This document shows positions 4,488 to 56,254 of a stretch of 64,000 nt of DNA, one piece after another. The position numbers and the translations under genes are program-made. Source of the stretch: an uncultured Candidatus Saccharibacteria bacterium (GTDB taxonomy: Bacteria; Patescibacteriota; JABMPQ01; JAQVVF01). The stretch's first letter is position 1. Every line of letters starts with the position of its first letter. Under the pieces are notes generated by a model that did not search any database, had not been told where the DNA came from, and saw only the letters and a program-made list of their open reading frames with translations. The stretch spans positions 2,046 to 66,045 of the forward strand of contig CAZNOH010000004.1 of the NCBI GenBank assembly GCA_964574655.1, read 5' to 3'.

Positions 4488-5780
4488 TTAAAAATTCGTT
4501 CTTTGCCACTCTGCACTTTGACGAACTAACAGTTCTTGAGCTCTCTCTGGTTCAGCCATTAATTCTTTAGTTATTTTTTCCATTCTCATGCTTTGAGATC
4601 CTTTTATCAAAACTAAATCACCTGATTTTAAGATTTTGTTTTGAACAAAAAGTCCGGCTTCTTCTGAATTTTGAAATGTAAAAACTTTGTCTTTTGAAAA
4701 GCCAAGACTGATTGCTTCACTTGCAATATATTCGGATGCTTTGCCAACTGCGACAATATAATCTGCAGATTGAGAAGCTAATTTACCTATATCTTTATGG
4801 GCTTCAACTGTTAATGCGCCCAACTCTAACATGTCGGCTAGGCAAGCTATTTTTCTGCCAGATGTTTTTATTTCTTTTAAAGTATTTAAAGCTGACAACG
4901 TTGCTTCTGGAGAAGCATTATAGGTATCATCAATCAGATAAGATCCTTTAATGCCTGGAATTAGATTCATTCTGCCTCTTGGAGCTTTATAATCAAATAG
5001 CAGTTCTGAGATTTCAACTAAATTAATTTTCATTGAGATTGCACATGCAGCTGCTGCTAAAACGGCATAAATTTGAGTTTTACTAAAAATATTTTTCAGC
5101 CTGACTGGAACTTCTTTGCCTTGATAGCGCATTTTAAAATTATAGCCTTGCAAACTTTGTCCTTGAGAAAAATCTGCATTTAAAGATAAATTATCTGCTT
5201 GTAATTCTGATCCTTTAATAAAACCAAAAGTAATTGTTTTTGCTTTTGTTTGTTTTGCTGATAATCTGACGGCAATATCATCATAATTCAAAATTGCAGT
5301 ATCTGCTGAATTTAAGCAACTGATTATTTTTGCTTTTTCTAATAATAACTCTTTTGGACCTTTGAAAAATTCGACGTGAACTGGCCTTTTGCCGATAGCA
5401 GTTATAACAGAAATACTTGGCTTTGCTAAATCTAATAGATAATCCATATCATTCGGCTTGTCAACACCCATTTCTAAAACTAAAATTTTTGGATAATTTT
5501 TTGAACGAATTTGTTTTAGTCCAGAATTAAAAATCTTAAGCCAGCCAATAAGCGAACGGTTAGCTGTTTTTTTACCAATTATTGTTAACGGTAATCCGAT
5601 TTCATTATTATAATTTCCGATTGTTTTTCTGACAGAAAATTTATTTTTCAAAACATGATAAATCGCCTCAACTGTTCCAGTTTTTCCAACACTGCCAGTA
5701 ACGCCAATGATAATTGGTTTTTGATGTTTAATTATTGATTTCGAAATATTTCTTAATATTTTTTGGAGAATAGACTTCAT
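4488..5780 (-). CDS. murF: UDP-N-acetylmuramoyl-tripeptide--D-alanyl-D-alanine ligase (Mur ligase family, MurF-like)
   Basis: Mur ligase P-loop GVTGSVGKTGT; MurF-type IDDTYNASP motif; position in the dcw cluster. Confidence 0.8.
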   Translation of the reverse strand: MKSILQKILRNISKSIIKHQKPIIIGVTGSVGKTGTVEAIYHVLKNKFSVRKTIGNYNNEIGLPLTIIGKKTANRSLIGWLKIFNSGLKQIRSKNYPKILVLEMGVDKPNDMDYLLDLAKPSISVITAIGKRPVHVEFFKGPKELLLEKAKIISCLNSADTAILNYDDIAVRLSAKQTKAKTITFGFIKGSELQADNLSLNADFSQGQSLQGYNFKMRYQGKEVPVRLKNIFSKTQIYAVLAAAACAISMKINLVEISELLFDYKAPRGRMNLIPGIKGSYLIDDTYNASPEATLSALNTLKEIKTSGRKIACLADMLELGALTVEAHKDIGKLASQSADYIVAVGKASEYIASEAISLGFSKDKVFTFQNSEEAGLFVQNKILKSGDLVLIKGSQSMRMEKITKELMAEPERAQELLVRQSAEWQRTNF

Positions 5781-5783
5781 ATT

Positions 5784-6280
5784 AATAACTAAATAACTAA
5801 ATTATAAATAACAAAATTATTTTTTCTTTTCCCTGCCAAAATATATTGAACTCAATATTTTGATTATTTCCTGATATTCTTTTCCTAAATCGATGACTTC
5901 TTCTTTATTACCCAAATTAAGAGAATATAGCATTCTTAACCAACAATCAGTTTCACATGCTTCTTTTCTGGAAATGTTCAAGGAACTTTTGAAATCTTTA
6001 TAGGAATAACCACTACTTGCTTCTGTTAAATTCGCTACAACTGACATTGCTGATCTAATTATTTGCTTGCTGATTTCTTTTGCTTCAATTGAATAAGGAA
6101 TTTTCCTAGCCAATTTGATAACTCGAACTGCTGCTTTAAAACATCTCTGCCAAATATCTTTTTTCTTGTAATCTTTAGACCAAACCATAATCTTAATAAC
6201 TAAATGATAAATAACATAATGACAAAATACTTTAATTTATAATTCTTTTTGTTATTTATAATTTAGTAATTTAGTTATTT
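5784..6280. mobile_element. IVS-like cassette: four-helix-bundle gene flanked by 33-nt terminal inverted repeats (5784-5816 and 6247-6280, one mismatch) plus an extra direct partial copy at 6199-6231
   Basis: aataactaaataactaaattataaataacaaaa versus the reverse complement of ttttgttatttataatttagtaatttagttatt; inserted between ftsI and murF; related copy at 14706-14738. Confidence 0.55.
5817..6188 (-). CDS. Four-helix-bundle protein (23S rRNA intervening-sequence protein family, TIGR02436-like)
   Basis: 123 aa; RSAMSVVANLTEA...LNISRKEACETDCWLRM matches the family consensus; second paralog at 34515-34901. Confidence 0.7.
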   Translation of the reverse strand: MVWSKDYKKKDIWQRCFKAAVRVIKLARKIPYSIEAKEISKQIIRSAMSVVANLTEASSGYSYKDFKSSLNISRKEACETDCWLRMLYSLNLGNKEEVIDLGKEYQEIIKILSSIYFGREKKK

Positions 6281-14151: not shown

Positions 14152-14598
14152 TTATTTTAATTCAACTGTAGCGCCGGCTGTTTCTAATTTCTTTTTCAAT
14201 TCTTCTGCTTCAGCCTTAGCAACTTTTTCTTTAATAACTACTGGAGCTTTATCAATCATGTCTTTAGCTTCTTTAAGACCCTTGCCTGTAATTTCTTTTA
14301 CAGCTTTGATAACTTGGATCTTTTGATCGCCGACAGCCTTCAATTCAATGTTGAATTCTGTTTTTTCTTCAGCTTCACCTGCTTCGGAACCTGCAGCACC
14401 TGGCATAGCCATGCTCATTGGAGCAGCTGCTGATACACCGAATTTTTCTTCTAGAACTTTGACTAATTCAGAAAGTTCTAAAACTGACATTTTTTCAATT
14501 CCTTCTACTAAGGTTTTGAATTTTTCTGGAACTACGACGTCTTTTTTTTCAGAAACCTTTTCTTCAACTTTAGCTTCTACTTTTTTTTCTTCTGCCAT
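14152..14598 (-). CDS. rplL: 50S ribosomal protein L7/L12
   Basis: C-terminal domain [22 protein letters not shown]...VELK. Confidence 0.9.
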
Positions 14599-14599
14599 A

Positions 14600-14738
14600 A
14601 ATTTATTGTGGTTTATTAGTTAATTAGTTTATTAGTTAATTAGGAAACTGATTAAGATAGCCTAATCAACTAATATAACTAATTAAACTAATCAAACTTT
14701 ATTATTAATTTAGTTATTTAGTTATTTATAATTTAGTT
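14600..14738. repeat. AT-rich palindromic spacer; its last ~33 nt is a copy of the four-helix-bundle cassette terminal repeat
   Basis: 14706-14738 atttagttatttagttatttataatttagttatt is the reverse complement of the 5784-5816 family. Confidence 0.55.
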
Positions 14739-15258
14739 ATTTCTTGTCTTTCACGGCGCTTAATACATTAATAAGGCCTCGCAAGTTACCTGCCAACACG
14801 TTAACAAAACCAGTGATTGGAGCTTTGATAGTACCAACAGTTCTTGCAAGCATTTCTTCTTTTGAAGGAAGCTTGGCTAAATTCACGACTTCTTTGCTTG
14901 AAAGCAATGCCTTGCCTAAAATACCACCTAATAATTGCATTACCTTGTGCTTTTTAGCAAATTGATGCAAGATCTTTGCTCCTGCTACTTCATCAGCATA
15001 TCCGAAAGCTACTGCGTTTGGTCCTTTAAATTTTTCTAATTTAACATCTTTTAGATCTGAATTTTTCAATGCTAATTCGAATAAAGAATTTTTAACAACC
15101 GATACTTCAACATCTTGTTTCTTAGCTTCTTTTTTTAGCTCTCTGACTTCATTAACTTTCAAACCTGTAAAATTAGCAAAAACTAATGATTTTGCTTTGT
15201 TGAGCTTGTCAGTTGTTTCTTTGACCATCTTTTCTTTTTGTTCTCTTGTTTTGGCCAT
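14737..15258 (-). CDS. rplJ: 50S ribosomal protein L10
   Basis: Conserved L10 fold sequence; upstream of rplL. Confidence 0.9.
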   Translation of the reverse strand: MAKTREQKEKMVKETTDKLNKAKSLVFANFTGLKVNEVRELKKEAKKQDVEVSVVKNSLFELALKNSDLKDVKLEKFKGPNAVAFGYADEVAGAKILHQFAKKHKVMQLLGGILGKALLSSKEVVNLAKLPSKEEMLARTVGTIKAPITGFVNVLAGNLRGLINVLSAVKDKK

Positions 15259-15303
15259 ATATTTTTAATTAAAAATCTAAAATCTAAAGTCTAAAATAAA
15301 AAT

Positions 15304-15450
15304 CTACGGTTTTGCCGTAGGAAATAATATTTTAATATAACATTAGAATATTGAATGTTTTCCTCGGCAAGATTTATCCCGCACATAAAGCGTTATGTGC
15401 TGAACTTGCTGTCTTTGGACTTGTCCTCCGGAGTCTAGCAAGACGGAGGA
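15304..15450. other. Three GC-containing hairpins in the rplJ 5' region at the cassette boundary (15304-15320 ctacgg/ccgtag; 15381-15400 gcacataaagcgttatgtgc; 15424-15450 tcctccg/cggagga)
   Basis: Perfect short palindromes in an otherwise AT-rich spacer; the middle one has a near-identical twin at 40760-40780. Confidence 0.5.
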
Positions 15451-15518
15451 GGATTAAATTAACTTGTAACTATATTTTAGCAAGAAATATTGCATTGTCA
15501 AGAGAAAAAGAAAATATA

Positions 15519-15547
15519 TTGACAATTCTGTCTTAAAGGTGTATATT
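15519..15547 (+). promoter_or_regulatory. Sigma70-like promoter (TTGACA-17-TATATT) for the CsrA island
   Basis: ttgaca at 15519-15524, tatatt at 15542-15547. Confidence 0.5.
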
Positions 15548-15593
15548 TTAATGTTGTGGATGGACTTCCGGAAAGGCAGAACAGGAGGAAGAG

Positions 15594-15929
15594 ATGAAAG
15601 AAACGCTCGCGGTTTTTATTGGCATGCTGCCAATCATCTTTTGTGTTGTTGGCATCATTAGTGCTTCTTACGCAGTTATGCTTCTGTTGTACATTAAATC
15701 AGAGAAGTTCATGCAAATACGACGCTATGTAGCCATGCTCATTATATCCAGCGTTGTTGCTTCAACAGCTGGTTTTTTCATGGTATTCAATCAGTGGAAG
15801 GATGACATAGCTATTTTGTCAAATGCAAAACAATCTTGCGATGTAGAAATGCAGAATTGCAAAGAAAAAATTCGAGGAACAATTATTAATTTACATGGCT
15901 TAGACAGGCAATCTCTTGGGATCCGCTAA
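15594..15929 (+). CDS. Small 3-TM membrane protein (compositionally foreign cassette)
   Basis: GC about 42%; RBS caGGAGGaagag-ATG; hydrophobic segments. Confidence 0.5.
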   Translation: MKETLAVFIGMLPIIFCVVGIISASYAVMLLLYIKSEKFMQIRRYVAMLIISSVVASTAGFFMVFNQWKDDIAILSNAKQSCDVEMQNCKEKIRGTIINLHGLDRQSLGIR

Positions 15930-15970
15930 CTTCACCCCCCCCTATCAAGCTGAATGACTGTTCTTTCTTT

Positions 15971-15994
15971 ACCCTATTTAGTTAGGGTTTTTTA
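15971..15994 (+). terminator. Hairpin plus T-run terminator (ccctatttagttaggg)
   Basis: Near-identical to the terminator at 16830-16851. Confidence 0.5.
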
Positions 15995-16080
15995 TTGACA
16001 AAAATATATGAAATTGGTATTATGATGCTTGCATTGTTCAAATTGCCCTTCATAAAAAAGAAGGACGAGGAGGTCAGGAT

Positions 16081-16566
16081 ATGAAAAAGACGGCGTTGAT
16101 TTTTTTGTTAATGTTTGTCACTTCTCCAGTTTTTGCAAAACCTCAAGTTCAATCTGCTTTTGTCAGCGCAAGGCGTGAAGCTTTCCAAAGCTCTTATGCG
16201 ATGTGTCAAGACAAAGGACTGGCAAGAGAGTTGGGATATGGTACTGGAATTTATATTGAGGACGGTACGGAAAAACCATTTGAATGGTATGCTTGGACTG
16301 TTATTGATGGTTTTGTTCAGTTCCAATTCAATGTTTTGGTGAGCTACGGTGATCGCTACAAAATTATGGTAGAAACTGATTCAATCTCTGACAGGCCTTG
16401 GGATGCAAGAAGTGAAGATTATGAAACCTGTCTTGGAATTGACAATTCATGGGCTTCTTGTTTGCAAAAAAATAATTGCAATTACAAAACAATCTTGGAT
16501 AGCTATTTGGTAAAATTTGAGCGATTTATTTATTTCAAGGAAATGAAAGTAAATGCCTATTACTGA
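16081..16566 (+). CDS. Secreted hypothetical protein with signal peptide (foreign cassette)
   Basis: MKKTALIFLLMFVTSPVFA signal; RBS aGGAcgaGGAGGtcaGGAt-ATG. Confidence 0.5.
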   Translation: MKKTALIFLLMFVTSPVFAKPQVQSAFVSARREAFQSSYAMCQDKGLARELGYGTGIYIEDGTEKPFEWYAWTVIDGFVQFQFNVLVSYGDRYKIMVETDSISDRPWDARSEDYETCLGIDNSWASCLQKNNCNYKTILDSYLVKFERFIYFKEMKVNAYY

Positions 16567-16593
16567 TGCTTCAGTTCGAAAAGGAGGAAGGCA

Positions 16594-16821
16594 ATGCTGA
16601 CGTTGACAAGAAGGTCTGGCGAATCGATCATGATTGGCAATGATATTCGAATCGTTGTCCGTGAAATCAAGGGCAACCAAGTGAGAATCGGTATTGATGC
16701 GCCTAATAACGTTCCTATCTGGCGCGAAGAAATCTATGTGAAAATTCAAGACGAAAGTCAAGATCAAGGTCAACAAAATCAAGACAAAGATCTTGGAGTA
16801 ACTGCTCGCTTAGCACTTTAA
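16594..16821 (+). CDS. csrA: Carbon storage regulator CsrA (75 aa with C-terminal extension)
   Basis: MLTLTRRSGESIMIGNDIRIVVREIKGNQVRIGIDAPNNVPIWREEIY matches the CsrA consensus; RBS aaGGAGGaaGG. Confidence 0.8.
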   Translation: MLTLTRRSGESIMIGNDIRIVVREIKGNQVRIGIDAPNNVPIWREEIYVKIQDESQDQGQQNQDKDLGVTARLAL

Positions 16822-16829
16822 AAAAACAA

Positions 16830-16851
16830 CCCTATTAACTAGGGTTTTTTA
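16830..16851 (+). terminator. Hairpin plus T-run terminator (ccctattaactaggg)
   Basis: 5-bp stem followed by T6. Confidence 0.55.
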
Positions 16852-16884
16852 TTTGCAAAAAATTATGACTCTAAATTTTTATTT

Positions 16885-18009
16885 CTAATTATCTAAATAT
16901 TTTTGTACATTTTTGACATGTTCCTCGCCTGTTTCACTAAAAATTGCCTTTCCTGATTTATCAGTAATGAAATACATATAATTACTTTCTGTTGGATTTA
17001 AAACAGCGTTGATTGCAACCAAGCTTGGATTGCTGATTGGACCTGGCGGTAATCCTTTATGCGTATAAGTATTGTATGGGCTTTTAATTTTTAAATCCTG
17101 AGCAGATGCGCGACTGTCATAATTTCCAGTAACATAAGTGATTGTTGAATCTGATTCTAGTGCTTTTTCTGCTTTGAGACGATTAAAATAAAGTCCGGAA
17201 ACTAGATTCATTTCTTCTGGCGATTTAACTTCTTTTTGAATAATTGATGCTAAAGTCAAAACTTGATTTAATGTCATGTTTTTGCTTTTCACCTGTTCTC
17301 TGATATCTTTAGTTACTTTTTGTCCAAAATTATCGAGCATTTTTTTAATTATTGTCTCTGGATTTGAATCTGCATAAACAAAATAAGTATCAGGATAAAG
17401 ATAACCTTCAAGGCTGGCATCTTTAGGCTTGTCAGCTAAAAAATCATAATTATATTTTTGCGGATTATTAACTTCTGCTAAAAATTTTTCTTGAAAATCT
17501 TTTTTTAATTCATCATACTTAACATTTCTGCTGGCGTTATTTTTTGCATATAAGTCGCCGAGATAATCGGCAATTTGTTTTGAATTCCAGCCCTCTATAA
17601 TAACTATTTTTTGTTGTTGAGAAGATTTATTGCCAGTAATCATTCTGGCAATATCAGCAATACTCATTTTTTGATTAAGTTCATATTTTCCCGGATTAAC
17701 CTTTTTATTAGCAAGCTTTAAGGAAACATAAGTTTTAAAATAGAATTCACTGCTTATTAAACCTTGATTATGCAAATCTTTGGCAAGATCTGAAACGCCT
17801 TCGCCTTTAGCAACATTGAATTCAATAAATTTGCTTGTCTTGCTATTTGATTGATAGAATTTAAAACTAAAAAAAGATGCTAGCAAAAAAAGAATTGCAA
17901 CAATGATAATTATTAATAATCCAAAAATATTATGCTCTTTTTGGAGATGTTTTGATGGCTTGTTGGTAAAAATATTATTTTTGTTGATTGCTTTTTTGAT
18001 GATATCCAT
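16885..18009 (-). CDS. mltG: Endolytic murein transglycosylase MltG (YceG-like)
   Basis: N-terminal TM, YceG domain, LESDSTITYV motif. Confidence 0.75.
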   Translation of the reverse strand: MDIIKKAINKNNIFTNKPSKHLQKEHNIFGLLIIIIVAILFLLASFFSFKFYQSNSKTSKFIEFNVAKGEGVSDLAKDLHNQGLISSEFYFKTYVSLKLANKKVNPGKYELNQKMSIADIARMITGNKSSQQQKIVIIEGWNSKQIADYLGDLYAKNNASRNVKYDELKKDFQEKFLAEVNNPQKYNYDFLADKPKDASLEGYLYPDTYFVYADSNPETIIKKMLDNFGQKVTKDIREQVKSKNMTLNQVLTLASIIQKEVKSPEEMNLVSGLYFNRLKAEKALESDSTITYVTGNYDSRASAQDLKIKSPYNTYTHKGLPPGPISNPSLVAINAVLNPTESNYMYFITDKSGKAIFSETGEEHVKNVQKYLDN

Positions 18010-25726: not shown

Positions 25727-25867
25727 ATTTTAAATTTTAACATAAAATAAAAAATCCTGCACACTCTTCCACTTGCGTGGAACAGGCACAGGAGACTTTA
25801 TGTTTTTAATATAACAGGAATATAGATGTTGTCAAGATTTTTTGGGTATAACATATACAAACTCGAA

Positions 25868-25938
25868 CGGGCGAGGAAGGAATTGAACCCTCAGTTTCAG
25901 CTTTGGAGGCTGATGGTTTACCGTTAACCGACTCGCCC
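25868..25938 (-). tRNA. tRNA-Trp (anticodon CCA)
   Basis: Cloverleaf folded by eye: acceptor GGGCGAG/CTCGCCC, anticodon loop CTCCAAA, T-loop TTCAATT; no encoded 3' CCA. Confidence 0.7.
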
Positions 25939-26592
25939 ATGTATATTCAAAAATGCTTTTGCTATATATAGAATTTCTTTTGCGAAGCTAGTATCATAAT
26001 AACAAACATTCACACAGCCGGGATAACCTTCTTTAATGCGTTTAGCAGTATGCGGTTTCTGATATGGCTTTATAAATTGCGATTTTTTTATGCCCGTAAC
26101 TTTTGACCAGAATAAAATTTGTTTCTGAATTGAATGATACTCGTGCAAATGTAATGCAACTCTAAAATTTTTTTCATCAATATCAAATGCAGATCGCAAT
26201 AAGAAAACAAATGTTTTAATTAATTTGGGATCAGAATTAGTAAATTGTATCTTTCGGGGACTTTTGGCGCCTTCACACCAATATAGCAACGCGCAAATTA
26301 TTTTTTGATGGTCTTTAGAGAATAAATTATCTCTGACTAGGCTTTTTGACTTTTCACTAATTATTTTTTCAAAATTTTCTCGCTTTCTTCTTTGTACTAA
26401 TTTTGACTTTTCTCTTCCGAAAATTCCTCTTTTAATTAGTCTAGTTTTAGCTTGATTAGATAATTTAATATTTTTTAGCCAAAAAGAAGCAGTACTCTTA
26501 GAAATTACTACTTTCTCGGAGATTTCATTCAACGAAAAACCGGCTTTTCTCAACTTGATTGCTTTTTGGTATTTTTCTTTTAATCTAATCAT
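25924..26592 (-). CDS. HTH-domain protein with a possible LAGLIDADG-like core; 3' end overlaps tRNA-Trp by 15 nt
   Basis: N-terminal GFSLNEISEKVVISKSTASFWLKN HTH; LLYWCEGAKS. Confidence 0.45.
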   Translation of the reverse strand: MIRLKEKYQKAIKLRKAGFSLNEISEKVVISKSTASFWLKNIKLSNQAKTRLIKRGIFGREKSKLVQRRKRENFEKIISEKSKSLVRDNLFSKDHQKIICALLYWCEGAKSPRKIQFTNSDPKLIKTFVFLLRSAFDIDEKNFRVALHLHEYHSIQKQILFWSKVTGIKKSQFIKPYQKPHTAKRIKEGYPGCVNVCYYDTSFAKEILYIAKAFLNIHGRVG

Positions 26593-26998: not shown

Positions 26999-27080
26999 TT
27001 GGAGCGTCAGAACTTCGGAGCGTCAGAGCGTCGGACGTTACGCCGTTCTGACGCTCCGATTTCCGACGTTCTGAAGCTCC
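26999..27080. repeat. 80-nt imperfect inverted repeat (ggagcgtcagaac / gttctgacgctcc) at the left boundary of the high-GC island
   Basis: ttggagcgtcagaacttcggagcgtc ... gacgctccgatttccgacgttctgaagctccaa. Confidence 0.5.
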
Positions 27081-27091
27081 AATTTACGAAT

Positions 27092-27120
27092 AAAAAAAAG
27101 AAGACCGGTAAGGGTCTTCT
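27092..27120 (-). terminator. Rho-independent terminator of the 617-aa high-GC gene
   Basis: agaagacc-ggtaa-gggtcttct followed on the minus strand by U7. Confidence 0.65.
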
Positions 27121-27215
27121 GAAGGAACGGGAATAGATAGAAATGTGCGGGTAGGTCTGCGTCACGTTGCGTGAGCAGAAACTGAAGTTGTCTGAAGTGT
27201 TGTTGGAAGGTTTTA

Positions 27216-29069
27216 TCAGCCGCCGTTGCCCTTCAGCCGTGGCTTGGCGCTGATCTGCTCGACCGGCTGACCATTGAGCCAGGCGGCCGTCTCGTCCGGC
27301 GTGGCCTCGTTGCTCTGCCCGCTGCCACCCTCGTTGCCGTGGGTGCCGCGCGGGTTCCTCTTCTGGATCGCGCTGCGGACCTGCGGCCCGTCCGGGTTCT
27401 TGGCCATGTACTTCTCGATGCGCATCTTCAGCGTCATCGTCCACAGCTTCCCGATGGCCAAACTGCCGTCCCGCCAGCTGTCATGCTGGTCCTGGGACAT
27501 CTCGTACAGCTCCGCGGCTTGCTCGGGCGTGAGGCTCGAGTCGCTCTTCAGCTTCTCGACGATGAGCTGCTTGCGCAGCTCCATCGCCTGCCACGCCTCC
27601 CACGCCGTCAGCACCACCAGCCGAGGCACCCAGAACTTCCCGCCGCCCTCGGCCTTCTTCAGTCGCCCCTCCTTGTCCACGACCCGGACCGGCACGATCG
27701 CCGTCCGGAAGAGGGGCTTGTTTTCCCGCCCGTAGGTGGTGAGCTGCGTCCCCTCTTCGCTGTTGTTGGGGTTGTCGCTCTTCACCATCAGGCCAGGGTC
27801 GGCCCGGAACCTCTCCAGGTCACCCCAGGACCGAGAGATTTCGGCCGTATTCAGCTTGCCACCGATCAGCCGACGCAACCACTCGATCGTGGCCTCGTGT
27901 TCCTTGTGCTCCTCGCTCGGCGCGGTCTCGGGGGCCAGCTCGATGAGGTCGGCGAGGTCGTCCACGACGCCCTCGACGTACTCGGCCTTCTTGCCCGCCG
28001 CTTCCTTCGCCCGCTGCTCCATCTCGGCGATCTGCTGACGCTCCCACGTCTCGCGGTTGATCTCGTGGATGTTCTTGAGCAGCTGCCATGCTTCCGACCC
28101 GCGGTACTTCCGGCTCTTCTCCATCAGCTCGACACGGAGCGCATCCATGCACTCCTGCGAGAGCTTGCCGGCCAGGGTCTCCGCGTTGCGCTCGTCCTTG
28201 AACTCGGGGTGGTGCTCGGCCATGATCTTGTCCCACACCGCCCACGAGCCTTCGACCATCTCCTTCTCGCGCTTGCCGGCCCACCGAGCCCACTTAATGT
28301 AGCCGTCCTTGTAGGTGAAGCTCAGGGGCTCCCGCAACGCGGGGTTTTCCCGGTTCAGGAGCGGCCGTAGCAGCTTCATCCCCGTCTCGATCTTGCCCAG
28401 CACGGGCATGCAGATCGCCGGGGGCTGCTGGTCCTTGTTGAAGTACCCCGGCTTCAGCTTCTTCATGAGCTGGACGACGGTACCTCGCTTGTCGCCCTGG
28501 GACAGGTGGATCTCGCTCATCGCGATCACCACGATGCCGTTCGGGCTGAAGGCCTGGTTCTCACCGAGCTGATCCGACACCACGAGCACCTCTTCCGGGT
28601 GGAAGAAGCACCCGACGGCCTTCGGGTAGTCCGGCTCGCTCGCCTTGTGGTAGTCCTCGTTGTCCTTCTCGCGCTGCTGCCGGTTGCGCTCCCGCGCGGC
28701 CTTCCGCCGTTGCTGCCGGGCGCGCCTCATGTCCTGCTTCTCCTGCCGGGTGAGCGGGCGCCCGACCTTGGCCTCCTCGGCCGCCTCCTCGGCTTGGGTC
28801 TCCTGCTCGTCCTCGTCGTCCCCGTCCTCGACCACGACGCCGTCCTCCACCACGGGGGCGGGGGGCTCGGCGACGGGCTGCTCGGTCACGATCTCGGTCT
28901 GCTCGGTCTTCTTGACGCGGGGCTTGCGCACCCGCTTCGGCTTCTCGACCTTCTCGGGCTCAACCTGGGCCTCCTCGGCCTGGGTCTCGCCATCCTTCAC
29001 CTCCTTCTTCTGCTCGGTGTTGTTGACGGTGATCTGGGAATCGGTCTTGGGTCCGCGCTTCGTACTCAT
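27216..29069 (-). CDS. Hypothetical 617-aa protein, about 65% GC: N-terminal ~140-aa charged disordered region (KPKRVRKPRVKK) then a large alpha-rich globular region; no recognised family
   Basis: Single long ORF with strong codon periodicity; RBS aGGAGGgtagaagag-ATG; own promoter-like TTGACA...TATAAA and own terminator; the plus-strand ORFs over it are high-GC artefacts. Confidence 0.6.
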   Translation of the reverse strand: MSTKRGPKTDSQITVNNTEQKKEVKDGETQAEEAQVEPEKVEKPKRVRKPRVKKTEQTEIVTEQPVAEPPAPVVEDGVVVEDGDDEDEQETQAEEAAEEAKVGRPLTRQEKQDMRRARQQRRKAARERNRQQREKDNEDYHKASEPDYPKAVGCFFHPEEVLVVSDQLGENQAFSPNGIVVIAMSEIHLSQGDKRGTVVQLMKKLKPGYFNKDQQPPAICMPVLGKIETGMKLLRPLLNRENPALREPLSFTYKDGYIKWARWAGKREKEMVEGSWAVWDKIMAEHHPEFKDERNAETLAGKLSQECMDALRVELMEKSRKYRGSEAWQLLKNIHEINRETWERQQIAEMEQRAKEAAGKKAEYVEGVVDDLADLIELAPETAPSEEHKEHEATIEWLRRLIGGKLNTAEISRSWGDLERFRADPGLMVKSDNPNNSEEGTQLTTYGRENKPLFRTAIVPVRVVDKEGRLKKAEGGGKFWVPRLVVLTAWEAWQAMELRKQLIVEKLKSDSSLTPEQAAELYEMSQDQHDSWRDGSLAIGKLWTMTLKMRIEKYMAKNPDGPQVRSAIQKRNPRGTHGNEGGSGQSNEATPDETAAWLNGQPVEQISAKPRLKGNGG

Positions 29070-29275
29070 CTCTTCTACCCTCCTAGGAGTCTTGGAACCA
29101 GAAACTGAAAACGCGCGCGCTCTAAACGCAGCATTGCACTGCGAAAAGCCATGTCCTGGAATAGTGGGAATAATCTGAATAATAATAATTTTTTATAACC
29201 TTCCAAATTGTCAGTGTTCTAGAATTACTATCAATATCTTGGCTCAAAATATTTTGAGACAAACTGCTGACAGCT

Positions 29276-29400
29276 AACTTTTAATTTACAATTATCAATT
29301 ATCAATTTTCAATAAATGACCAATTACCAATTTTCAATCCGACGACAACTGTCATTGTAAATTGATCATTGAAAATTTATTGTAAATTGGAAATTGATAA
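29276..29400. repeat. AT-rich palindrome (aattatcaatt vocabulary) with core ccgacgacaac
   Basis: Arms mirror around 29339-29349; native-style element separating the two high-GC cassettes. Confidence 0.55.
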
Positions 29401-29553
29401 TTTTTAAACGTCCGCCTCAAATAACAATGTATCCATTATTATTTCAGGTGGTGCCACAGAAAATGTGGCAAGAAAAGGTACTGGGGGATGGAATGTGGGG
29501 TTCGCTGAAGTGCTTGGGTGAGTTACTAGGCTCGTCGCTTGATCAGGTCAGGC

Positions 29554-29772
29554 TCAGCCCGACTTGGATCCCCGCGACTTGCCCTTCGCGCTGAGCTCCT
29601 GCGAGGTCTTGCCGGCACCAGCGACGACGGCGCCACGTGCCGGGGCCAGGTCACCGACGGCGACCTCGCCAAGGTTCTTCTCCTTCGTCTTCGCCTTCGC
29701 CGGACACATGCCCTTGCCATGCCGGTCGCCTCCGCTCTGAACTCGCTGGTGACAGTAGATGCAGTTCGACAT
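29554..29772 (-). CDS. Small 72-aa high-GC protein with CxxCH...C zinc-ribbon-like N-terminus and Lys-rich tail
   Basis: agaaGGAGGaaaagtcgcg-ATG; MSNCIYCHQRVQSGGDRHGKGMCPAKAKTKEK...; the ORF track places the start 18 codons upstream, but the SD-positioned ATG is at 29772. Confidence 0.5.
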   Translation of the reverse strand: MSNCIYCHQRVQSGGDRHGKGMCPAKAKTKEKNLGEVAVGDLAPARGAVVAGAGKTSQELSAKGKSRGSKSG

Positions 29773-29832
29773 CGCGACTTTTCCTCCTTCTCTCGAGTGA
29801 CTCTCTATTGGTCCCCCTCCCCGCAAACGTGA

Positions 29833-29999
29833 CTGAGATAATAGCTAATAGTTGATAGCTAATAGTCGTTCTATTAGCTCTTAGCTATAAGCTATTATCA
29901 CGATTCCGTCCATTTATTAGAGGCCGAAATGGCTCGGCAAGGACTAAAAAAGATTAATTCCCTGGAGACCATTTCACCTCCTCTAATAGATAGACGGAG
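29833..29999. other. Structured non-coding segment: atagctaatag palindrome (29833-29906) then a 19-nt inverted repeat (tccgtccatttattagagg / cctctaatagatagacgga) enclosing a ~55-nt core
   Basis: Perfect or near-perfect complementarity read directly; no ORF. Confidence 0.4.
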
Positions 30000-33612: not shown

Positions 33613-33747
33613 AAAATTCTAAACTCTAAATTCTAAACCCTAAATAAATTCAAAATTCAAATTTCTAAAACTCAAAGATTTTAAAGCTTTTGGGTTTTGT
33701 TATTTGAATTTAGGATTTAGAATTTTGTATTTCTAAATAATTCAATA

Positions 33748-34458: not shown

Positions 34459-34951
34459 AAGTAAAAATTAAAAAGTAAAAAGGTAAAAGTTACAAGTCAA
34501 AAGTCAAAAAACTATTAATAATATTTTTTGGCTTTTGCTTTTAAAATTATTGAAGCTAAAATATTTGTAATTTCGTTTAATTCTTCCAATAAACTTTTTA
34601 CTTCGCTTAAAATATTTTGATTTTTTGTAAGATCAGAATCCCTCAACAATCCTAACCAAAATTTTGATTCATTGCCAGACCTTAAAGCAATGCCATAATA
34701 CTTAATAAATTCTTTCTTAGATGAAGACGCCTGAACCTCAATGATATTTGCACCAATGCTACTTCCTGACCTGAGCAATTGTTTCAAAATAACTTCCGTT
34801 GATAAATTTCTAGGAAATTTGTTAGAAAGTTTAATTATCCTAATAGCAAAAAAATAAACTCTTTTCTTAATATCATAAATTTTCCCTTCTTCGTTCGTCA
34901 TTTTTTTACTTTTTTACTTGTGGCTTTTTACTTTTTCCTTTTGACTTTTAC
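34459..34951. mobile_element. IVS-like cassette: second four-helix-bundle gene flanked by gtaaaag/gtcaaaag-vocabulary inverted arms (34459-34510 and 34902-34951) between pyrH and tsf
   Basis: Arms share k-mers in inverted order; a homologous gene-free arm lies at 42165-42215. Confidence 0.5.
34515..34901 (-). CDS. Four-helix-bundle protein (TIGR02436-like), paralog of 5817-6188
   Basis: RLLRSGSSIGANIIEVQASSSKKEFIKYYGIALRSGNESKFWLGLL. Confidence 0.7.
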   Translation of the reverse strand: MTNEEGKIYDIKKRVYFFAIRIIKLSNKFPRNLSTEVILKQLLRSGSSIGANIIEVQASSSKKEFIKYYGIALRSGNESKFWLGLLRDSDLTKNQNILSEVKSLLEELNEITNILASIILKAKAKKYY

Positions 34952-37615: not shown

Positions 37616-38206
37616 ATGTCTCGCCAGGTTCCGGTGGATCAGTTCGAAGGGCTGGGGCTCCTGCCCCTGATCATCCTCGTAAAGGTGGCCGGAATCGGTC
37701 CCTGGATTGAGGCTCTGCTGCCCGAACGGCAGTACAACGCAGACGCGGTTGCCGCAAGGCGCCGCAAGGAGGCGGAGGAACTCGGAATCTCGTTCGGGAT
37801 CCGACGTGACGGGATGGATGACACAGGTTGCAACGTGATCTGCAACCGGCAATTCGTGTGGATCGACGCTCTTCTGGCGGGATTCGCCATGGAGAGATAC
37901 AAGATCACGGAAGCGAGCTGGTTCTGGCGCGAGGATGAGCGAGGACGGAAGCGCTTCCTCCAGCTCGCCTTCACCATGACCGGCGATGCTATTTCTCTAC
38001 CGAAACGTGTTTCACGGATGTTCGCCGTGGGCGTGGTTCCTTTCGTGAACGTCTGGGCAAACGTTCGCGAGAGTGGTGAAGAGCTGTTTCGGCTCGACAC
38101 CATCAATGTCCCTAGCCCCCGCATGAACGTGGTGGCCGAGGAGGAGTTGCACTGCAGCTTCTCTCCCGGTCGATACACCTACCTCACCACCGCTCCCCAC
38201 CGCTAG
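37616..38206 (+). CDS. Hypothetical 196-aa protein (GC about 58%; foreign cassette)
   Basis: RBS gtGGAGGtatgag-ATG; followed by the terminator at 38249-38278. Confidence 0.55.
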   Translation: MSRQVPVDQFEGLGLLPLIILVKVAGIGPWIEALLPERQYNADAVAARRRKEAEELGISFGIRRDGMDDTGCNVICNRQFVWIDALLAGFAMERYKITEASWFWREDERGRKRFLQLAFTMTGDAISLPKRVSRMFAVGVVPFVNVWANVRESGEELFRLDTINVPSPRMNVVAEEELHCSFSPGRYTYLTTAPHR

Positions 38207-55707: not shown

Positions 55708-56254
55708 GACGCAGAATTACGCAGAAGCTAACGCAGAAGACGCAGAACTTTTGCATCTTGCTGTGTCATAAACTCTACGAATTATTTCTGCTCCTTTAGG
55801 ATAACCAAAATTGACTAGAAATCCTAATTTATATTGTGAATTCTTAAGGTAATGCCAAAATTGTTCGATGTCTTGTTTGAACAAATTTGGTTTTGCTTTG
55901 AGTTCAATTAGAATTTTATCATTAATAATTAAATCTGGTATATAAATTCCAATTTTCTTGTTTAAATAATAAATACTTATTCTCTTTTGTTTATCAACTT
56001 TAAAACCTTGCTGTAGCAATCCGAAATAAAATGCTTCCTGATAAACTTTTTCTTTATGTCCGCTACCTAAAGTTTTATAAATCTCAAAGATAATTCCTCT
56101 GATTTTATATGATTCTTGTTTATATAAAAAGTCTGCCATTTCCCTCCTAAAATAACTTACTTATTTTTTATCTGCATTGTCTGCGTCAACTTCTGCATTA
56201 TTCCGCGATTTGTTTTCTGCTTTTTCTGCGTTCGCTTCTGCGTCATTCTGCGTT
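55708..56254. mobile_element. IVS-like cassette inside the atp operon: GxxExxY gene flanked by cgcagaa repeats (55708-55748) and inverted tctgcg repeats (56170-56254)
   Basis: Same repeat family as the gene-free palindrome at 35581-35670; located between atpA and atpG. Confidence 0.55.
55717..56139 (-). CDS. GxxExxY-family protein (PD-(D/E)XK-like, rRNA-IVS-associated family, TIGR04256-like)
   Basis: SYKIRGIIFEIYKTLGSGHKEKVYQEAF...ILIELKA...KLGFLVNFG; the last ~12 codons run into the flanking repeat and may be an ORF-caller artefact. Confidence 0.65.
   Translation of the reverse strand: MADFLYKQESYKIRGIIFEIYKTLGSGHKEKVYQEAFYFGLLQQGFKVDKQKRISIYYLNKKIGIYIPDLIINDKILIELKAKPNLFKQDIEQFWHYLKNSQYKLGFLVNFGYPKGAEIIRRVYDTARCKSSASSALASA

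Follow-up and report, generated by a model that had tools for sequence, protein, structure and literature searches.

Organization of the locus

We examined a 64-kb stretch of DNA (64,000 nucleotides; hereafter the window) from contig CAZNOH010000004.1 of an uncultured bacterium (assembly GCA_964574655.1), in which a gene of the CsrA family of RNA-binding proteins lies in a small cluster next to rplJ. The host is a member of the Patescibacteria (Candidate Phyla Radiation, CPR) with a genome of ~31% GC, and the gene content of the window is ordinary CPR housekeeping, including an mraZ-mraW-ftsL-PBP-mur cluster, the atp operon, tsf, rpsB and prfA. The ribosomal protein L10 encoded by rplJ is 89% identical to that of a 'Patescibacteria group bacterium' metagenome-assembled genome (MAG; L009, hereafter the sister), 69% identical to that of a second MAG (L010), and ~50% identical to those of Doudnabacteria and Moranbacteria MAGs. 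Three plus-strand open reading frames (ORFs) occupy 15.3-16.9 kb, between the minus-strand core genes rplJ and yceG. A sequence-only reading of the region had described them as a CsrA island, one three-gene block under its own promoter directly adjoining rplJ. The identification of rplJ by Pfam agrees with this placement, and the features of the interval are as follows.

14737-15258, minus strand: rplJ, Pfam L10 match, the core gene adjoining the module
15519-15547, plus strand: P1, predicted promoter of ORF1, TTGACA-17-TATATT, conserved in L009
15554-15593, plus strand: 5' leader of ORF1, purine-rich and unstructured, with a GGAGGA Shine-Dalgarno (SD) sequence 5 nt before the ATG and 3 further GGA
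15594-15929, plus strand: ORF1, 111 amino acids (aa), two predicted transmembrane segments and a Cys pair in the tail
15971-15988, plus strand: T1, predicted intrinsic terminator, ACCCTATTTAGTTAGGGT and a T-run, conserved in L009
15995-16023, plus strand: P2, predicted promoter of the ORF2-csrA operon, TTGACA-17-TATTAT with an extended TG
16081-16566, plus strand: ORF2, 161 aa, signal-peptide-like N-terminus, 4 Cys
16567-16593, plus strand: intercistronic spacer of 27 nt, carrying the csrA SD (AAAAGGAGGAAGG)
16594-16821, plus strand: csrA, 75 aa, PF02599
16828-16846, both strands: T2, predicted terminator, AACCCTATTAACTAGGGTT, with T-runs on each side
16885-18009, minus strand: yceG, a core gene convergent with csrA

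A scan for transcription signals recovered P1 exactly where it had been proposed, together with both of the near-identical terminators; their shared pattern, CCCTA..TAGGGTTTT, occurs at these 2 sites in the window, with 0 expected. P2 begins 7 nt past T1, and the scan of the region found neither a promoter nor a terminator between ORF2 and csrA. Because a second consensus promoter directly follows T1, the cluster consists of two predicted units, P1-ORF1-T1 and P2-ORF2-csrA-T2, and we reject a single three-gene operon. As predicted from its sequence, T2 is common to csrA on the plus strand and the convergent yceG on the minus strand. The 34-nt stretch running from T1 into P2 recurs at 82% identity after T2, as a decayed copy of the P2 -35 region. 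The order rplL-rplJ-ORF1-ORF2-csrA-yceG was recovered in three independent Logan assemblies, which, together with the synteny in the sister species, rules out an assembly chimera. Samples in which the organism is present are SRR13723393, SRR13723396 and SRR13723397.

The CsrA protein

The csrA product matches the Pfam profile PF02599 with 88.6 bits (cut-off 27; E=2.5e-25), its residues 1-52 covering profile positions 1-52 of 53, and it passes two NCBIfam equivalogs, NF002469 (93.3 bits, cut-off 73) and TIGR00202 (81.2 bits, cut-off 70.1). The protein is thus full-length and well described as the typical CsrA that had been recognized at this position. It aligns end to end with Pseudomonas aeruginosa RsmA (1vpz) and Escherichia coli CsrA (1y00) at ~60% identity (E ~3e-16). 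Mutagenesis of E. coli CsrA places the RNA-binding residues at L2/L4/R6/R7, in the V42-H43-R44-E45 region and at I47. In a structure-sequence alignment, the window CsrA, which starts with MLTLTRR and has its R44 within I-W-R-E-E, keeps L2, L4, R6, R7, V40, R44, E45, E46 and I47 and changes V42 to I and H43 to W. Broken RNA-binding residues had been named beforehand as a finding that would speak against a CsrA regulon; R44 and the N-terminal residues are intact, while positions 42 and 43 are substituted. Position 43 is also aromatic in the nearest database relatives (Y in P0002, F in P0005). A study of the plasmid homologue RsmQ that covers its H43 and R44 reports that H43A reduces RNA binding (PMC9928087). 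Judged from its sequence, the csrA gene of the window is intact and probably functional.

Compared with the gammaproteobacterial CsrA/RsmA proteins (1y00, 1vpz), the window protein belongs to the same length class, is ~60% identical over residues 1-57, and conserves the MLxLTRR, KGNQVRIG and REEIY segments as well as R44. It differs in W43, in a 20-aa Q/D-rich C-terminal tail, and in its position as the distal operon gene behind a gene for a predicted secreted protein. Its CPR host also differs, having core genes that lack an SD and no CsrB/RsmY-like GGA-sponge RNA in the window, where we found no Rfam small RNA family at gathering score and no intergenic GGA array.

A second point of comparison is the FliW-partnered CsrA of the Bacillus type (5dmb, 1t3o). 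One of the nearest database relatives of the window CsrA, P0005 (65% identity), adjoins fliW and a flagellin gene and shares with it the MLTLTRRSGE..IVVREI segment and the aromatic residue 43. In contrast, the 64-kb window holds no match to FliW or flagellin (tblastn, best E 0.6), and none of its sizeable ORFs belongs to a flagellar Pfam family, in agreement with the lack of flagellar or FliW context remarked on previously. Furthermore, the match of the window CsrA to the Bacillus-type structures is weaker (E ~3e-12 vs 3e-16), and it fails the NF001844 equivalog (41 bits vs 106).

The best database relatives of the protein are 57-68% identical and come from disparate settings, namely a 75% GC contig beside a kinase, a two-component locus, a SIR2 locus and the fliW-flagellin locus. 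As even the nearest homologues do not exceed 68% identity and derive from unrelated contexts, a donor of csrA cannot be named. Homologues at 48-66% identity are carried on 22 IMG/VR viral contigs, and CsrA-family genes are frequent on plasmids (PMC9928087). The module resembles such mobile-element Csr/Rsm systems (RsmQ of pQBR103, PMC9928087; rsm genes on Legionella and Pseudomonas plasmids, integrative and conjugative elements and phages) in being variably present on compositionally foreign DNA and in having homologues of similar identity on viral contigs, and RsmQ provides a precedent for an acquired CsrA taking over translational control. Unlike them, it lacks genes for an integrase, conjugation or phage functions as well as flanking repeats, and it resides in another host phylum, with no resident Csr system known for cross-talk. 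No integrase or transposase ORF was found at 15.3-16.9 kb, and no flanking pair of direct or inverted repeats beyond the duplicated terminator-promoter junction; with neither flanking repeats nor mobility genes, a transposon-like insertion is ruled out. Since a study of ultra-small groundwater prokaryotes reports csrA transcripts among those that are highly expressed (PMC9938205), the presence of csrA in such a group is not new.

The yceG-rplJ slot in related genomes

Structural comparison of the slot across related genomes revealed marked variation. In relatives, yceG and rplJ are co-directional neighbours, and the gap between them holds the following.

L046 (Kuenenbacteria MAG), 5775-6001: 226 bp
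L010, 3500-5790: five small SD-led membrane ORFs
L011, 1100-6000: three paralogous secreted proteins of ~480 aa
L019, 2760-6000, and L021, 1130-3970: a HicAB-like pair and other genes

Because the relatives carry unrelated cargo at this position, the yceG-rplJ slot is an accessory-gene hotspot. The module itself has a GC content of 0.37-0.42 and a GC content at third codon positions (GC3) of 0.33-0.39, against a GC3 of 0.234 +/- 0.026 in 22 core genes, which places it 4-6 standard deviations above the core and bears out the foreign composition attributed to it. Atypical composition is thus found together with patchy presence among close relatives, the combination by which a genomic island is recognized.

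The sister carries homologues of ORF1 and ORF2 on the same strand as in the window and lacks csrA. Between the two genomes, the ORF1 proteins are 27% and the ORF2 proteins 55% identical, with 68-70% identity of the coding nucleotides (68% for ORF1). The regulatory DNA, comprising promoters, leaders and terminators, is 80-89% identical (86-87% for the promoters and leaders of ORF1 and ORF2, with 87% for the ORF1 leader), and the flanking core genes are 81-82% identical. Since coding identity falls below regulatory identity, ORF1 and ORF2 evolve faster than their own regulatory DNA. After the ORF2 stop, the sister has AAAAGGAG at the position of the csrA SD, followed by ~40 unalignable nt, a segment matching the final ~12 nt of csrA with its stop codon, and then the terminator.

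A 1-kb contig, L047, holds P0032, the closest representative of ORF2 in a 1.8-billion-protein library (49-51% identity). Only 13 nt after this ORF2 homologue lies a 91-aa gene (640-915) with two Pfam CsrA stretches, followed by the same terminator. Its product shares the unusual W43 with the window CsrA; the first copy has R44 changed to D, and the second, partial copy ends in FREEI. No other relative of this variant was found among 5.8 billion proteins. P2 is recognisable in L047 and conserved in the sister. On the evidence of these alignments, the ORF2-csrA operon predates the divergence of the window genome, L009 and L047. The related CPR genomes, in which a search for CsrA homologues had been suggested, thus contain a rearranged copy (L047), a remnant (L009) and a locus without csrA (L010). 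Because csrA has been deleted in L009 and rearranged in L047, it is dispensable within an old module.

The ORF1 and ORF2 proteins

ORF1 combines two hydrophobic segments with a C-terminal Cys pair and matches no known family. ORF2 begins with MKK, 15 hydrophobic residues and VFA/KP, and has four Cys overall; this signal-peptide-like N-terminus and the four Cys suggest that it is an extracytoplasmic, secreted protein. No Pfam or NCBIfam family covers ORF2. Its homologues came from an exhaustive HMMER search of the 1.8-billion-protein library, which returned a family of 28 representatives at E<=1e-3, while a word-indexed search returned the query alone and scans of JGI metagenomes and viral proteins were empty. 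In the alignment, family members are ~160-180 aa long, have a hydrophobic segment at the N-terminus and share the conserved core ARxxGWGTGxY...FxWFAxxNSDG. An alignment-based AlphaFold (AF2) model of ORF2 reached a predicted local distance difference test (pLDDT) score of 90.4 and a predicted template-modelling (pTM) score of 0.81, against a poor single-sequence model (pLDDT 47). Searches of the model against the PDB and BFVD gave no significant fold match (best E 0.048 and 0.006, TM <=0.37). In the loci inspected for distant ORF2 homologues (27-35% identity), CsrA is never a neighbour.

GGA motifs in the leaders

The sequence-only reading rested its case for an imported CsrA regulon on the GGA motifs upstream of the three module genes, which it considered unusually dense. 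Listing the 40 nt before every gene of the window revealed two classes. In about 50 core genes the upstream region is AT-only and lacks an SD, whereas 14 genes carry a GGAGG 3-10 nt (median 6) before the start codon, usually in the form (c/a)gaGGAGGa(g/a)aagagATG. Their starts are listed below.

SD-led gene starts: 15594, 16081, 16594, 22353(-), 29069(-), 29772(-), 35914, 37616
SD-led gene starts, continued: 41375(-), 43921, 48024, 50176(-), 56139(-), 62046

The SD-led genes are mostly accessory and include those for TPR (35914), NYN and pentapeptide-repeat (62046) proteins, a PDDEXK_3 gene in the atp operon and several unknowns. Two of them have 60-66% GC, and GC3 is 0.33-0.39 in 9 of the 14, the three module genes included; the prs gene has an SD despite a native GC3. 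The GGA-rich SD regions that had been pointed out in the other foreign cassettes are indeed seen in the remaining SD-led genes. The accessory ORFs of L009 and L010, at loci that lack csrA, carry the same style of SD. As this style is common to the accessory genes of the clade, GGA-rich leaders are a property of the gene class and not of the CsrA module. In Parcubacteria, the anti-SD motif itself is reported to be missing from about half of the members (PMC9297842). The window contains no rRNA gene.

The leader strings quoted earlier are present as written. Between positions -40 and -1, GGA occurs 5 times before ORF1 and 3 times before ORF2, one of them at the SD in each, and the SD core alone supplies one or two GGA per leader. 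Outside the SD, the ORF1 leader has 3 GGA against 1.38 expected from shuffles of the leader itself (P=0.11), that of ORF2 has 2 against 0.57 (P=0.08), and that of csrA has 0 (P=1.0); the other SD-led genes have 0-2. The GGA counts of the module leaders do not differ from those of the other SD-led leaders (Mann-Whitney P=0.20). A GGA in a hairpin loop is the preferred CsrA site (PMC9928087). Hairpin prediction, likewise proposed as a check, placed no GGA in a loop in either the minimum free energy or the centroid folds of the three window leaders and two L009 leaders. The ORF1 leader is instead less structured than 197 of 200 shuffles (z=+1.96) and unusually unstructured in both species. The claim of unusual GGA richness therefore does not survive the count that had been set as its test: a strong GGAGG(A) SD set in an unstructured leader of purine-rich composition gives this density, which on these counts is no CsrA signature.

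Function and history of the module

Taken together, we favour, with appreciable reservation, an account in which the locus is an old, compositionally foreign and dispensable accessory module of two units, whose CsrA is probably functional and would act chiefly on its own leader and those nearby. The module (15505-16860) would occupy the variable slot between yceG and the promoter and leader of rplJ; its first unit would comprise P1, the two-transmembrane ORF1 and T1, and its second P2, the predicted secreted ORF2, csrA and the bidirectional T2. By homology, we infer that CsrA would bind as a homodimer to GGA-containing sites (GGA or A(N)GGA) in 5' leaders and block ribosome access, most likely at the SD regions of ORF1 and of the csrA operon. 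The module would be older than the split from the nearest relatives, csrA having presumably been deleted later in L009 and rearranged in L047.

Several points weigh against this account. The W at H43 of the VHRE motif means that the affinity or specificity of this CsrA may differ, and the loss of csrA in the sister, together with its decay in L047, could mean a drift towards non-function. Each of the leaders of ORF1 and ORF2 has one GGA that the sister, which has no csrA, does not share, and a real relation between CsrA and its targets would leave such a pattern, albeit with n=2. The promoters, terminators and signal peptide are computational predictions. Finally, the searches for partners or targets cover the 64 kb of the window.

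Foremost among the alternatives is the imported regulon itself, in which CsrA controls all SD-led accessory genes and leaves the SD-less core untouched. The sharp split between 14 GGAGG genes and ~50 without would render a GGA-binding repressor automatically selective for the first class. The GGA sites of ORF1 lie 19-25 nt upstream of its SD, a spacing of GGA to SD that suits bridging by one CsrA dimer. In addition, the stretch at 15402-15651 on the plus strand, which covers a hairpin (described below) together with the leader of ORF1, ranks with 10 GGA (mean 2.6) among the densest 250-nt stretches, the other dense stretches lying in GC-rich coding sequences, and one GGA per ORF1 and ORF2 leader is missing where csrA is missing. 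These residual hints, the leader GGA, the hairpin and the dense stretch, are too few observations to weigh heavily. Against them stand the absence of GGA from hairpin loops, non-SD GGA counts that do not exceed composition in any leader, and module leaders that are no different from other SD-led leaders. The tight spacing between SD and start codon (median 6 nt) is accounted for by ribosome binding and not by CsrA. Moreover, the csrA-less loci of L009 and L010 have accessory genes with an SD of this style, and the sister keeps its leaders after losing csrA. Of the original proposal, the intact CsrA and the foreign composition therefore stand while the motif evidence falls, and a regulon of this reach seems unlikely. 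As things stand, the locus carries an unremarkable CsrA gene within an accessory slot.

A second alternative holds that csrA is a decaying passenger, which came with or beside ORF2 by horizontal transfer and has no maintained function. Its deletion in the sister species fits this view, as does the L047 gene, which is rearranged, has D in place of R44 in the first of its two stretches and stands alone among 5.8 billion proteins. The lack of both FliW and a sponge RNA in the window points the same way, and CsrA is common on mobile elements, as illustrated by the 22 viral contigs and by plasmids (PMC9928087). However, the copy in the window is of full length, clears the equivalog cut-offs, retains all conserved core residues except H43, and keeps a strong SD and a terminator. 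While ORF2 has diverged to 51-55%, CsrA is still ~60% identical to proteobacterial CsrA, which suggests purifying selection, and the high expression of csrA in ultra-small groundwater prokaryotes (PMC9938205) further argues against a mere relic. We accordingly regard the passenger explanation as rather improbable.

A more far-reaching proposal would cast a horizontally acquired CsrA as the selective gatekeeper of SD-led, largely foreign genes in a Parcubacteria-type CPR genome whose core has abandoned the SD, a translational analogue of xenogeneic silencing. Under it, the GGA sites and the GGA/CCUCC hairpin that the window has beyond the csrA-less sister would be footprints of CsrA. We give this idea little credence. 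Finally, a partner switch in which ORF2 or its unsecreted precursor antagonizes CsrA, similar to the FliW/flagellin or CesT/effector circuits, is hardly credible: ORF2 and csrA are adjacent in two genomes, with a remnant in a third, and the non-significant fold matches of ORF2 include SycE and Spa15 (E 0.2-0.7, TM <=0.36), type III secretion chaperones of the same class as CesT, but those matches lack significance, the signal-peptide-like N-terminus and 4 Cys point to an extracytoplasmic protein, and distant ORF2 homologues are never found beside CsrA.

To our knowledge, post-transcriptional regulation has hardly been described in CPR bacteria. Under the favoured account of an old accessory module with a working CsrA, an intact CsrA with no visible FliW or sponge RNA, tied to a fast-evolving and predicted secreted protein, provides a testable entry point for this group. 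The broader result is the existence of two classes of translation initiation, an SD-less core and strong-SD accessory genes with a distinct GC3. If a GGA-binding protein were shown to discriminate between the two, it would amount to a novel means by which a minimal genome controls the genes it acquires.

The rplJ leader and its hairpins

The left side of the cluster carries three GC hairpins (15304-15450), which had been interpreted as the boundary of the island. The features on this side are listed below.

15474-15501, minus strand: promoter-like site for rplJ, TTGACA-16-TAAAAT with TG, divergent from P1 and 18 nt away from it
15288-15436, minus strand: 5' leader of rplJ (probable L10 leader, Rfam RF00557), with a terminator-like hairpin and T-run at 15320-15304
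15423-15453, both strands: hairpin GUCCUCC...GGAGGAGGA, a genome-specific insertion into the 5' part of the leader of rplJ

Against RF00557, which it matches from end to end with the terminal hairpin and U-run included, the window leader scores 38.2 bits and so falls short of the gathering score of 44 (E=3.4e-4 when 1.7 kb were searched); the orthologous leaders of L011 (59.5 bits), L009 (45.8) and L010 (45.0) all score above 44. The window and L009 leaders are 89% identical in nucleotide sequence. In common with the Rfam L10 leader, the element lies directly upstream of rplJ on the same strand and has the AAGACAGCA...UGCCGAGG core and a terminal hairpin with a U-run; it differs in falling under the gathering score and in an extra 31-nt hairpin in its 5' part. 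From the match to RF00557, the scores of the relatives and the identity to the sister, we conclude that the hairpins are most probably the autoregulatory leader of the rplJ-rplL operon. They lie on the rplJ strand, within this probable L10 leader, and we therefore reject an island boundary.

The extra 31-nt hairpin (15423-15453; GTCCTCCGGAGTCTAGCAAGACGGAGGAGGA) is absent from the sister in the alignment, and the window has no second copy of it. Its plus strand is rich in GGA and its rplJ mRNA strand in CCUCC, and it puts CCUCCUCC and GGAGGA on the rplJ mRNA. Its fold on the minus strand has a free energy of -15.1 kcal/mol (z=-2.3).

Ahead of core genes, the sequence is built from short repeats of AT-rich words, which vary between genes (e.g. 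15262-15300, 14600-14640 and 33613-33650), with tctaaaatctaaagtctaaaat before rplJ and taactaataaactaattaactaataaa before rplL. Upstream of the rplJ-rplL pair (14152-15258) the genes rplK-rplA are missing, and a gene for L1 or L11 was found nowhere in the 64 kb. A tRNA-Trp gene (25867-25939) is followed by an NYN-domain gene in place of secE-nusG-rplKA. The missing rplK-rplA may be tied to the uL1-lacking CPR group described in PMC9297842.

Other cassettes in the window

A block of 63-66% GC lies at 27000-29900 within the ~31% GC genome and contains two minus-strand ORFs, 27216-29069 and 29554-29772. The first encodes 617 aa with a charged, low-complexity N-terminus (GC3 0.93) and has its own consensus promoter (30135-30107), SD and terminator (27120-27099); no Pfam, NCBIfam or PDB match was found for it. 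A second high-GC cassette (37616-38206, plus strand) has 60% GC and encodes 196 aa. These cassettes could reflect recent transfer from a high-GC organism or mis-assembly. The SD-led PDDEXK_3 nuclease-family gene of the ATP synthase operon lies between atpA and atpG (55717-56139, minus strand), and two genes of the '23S rRNA intervening sequence protein' family, both on the minus strand (5817-6188 and 34515-34901), are found among core genes.

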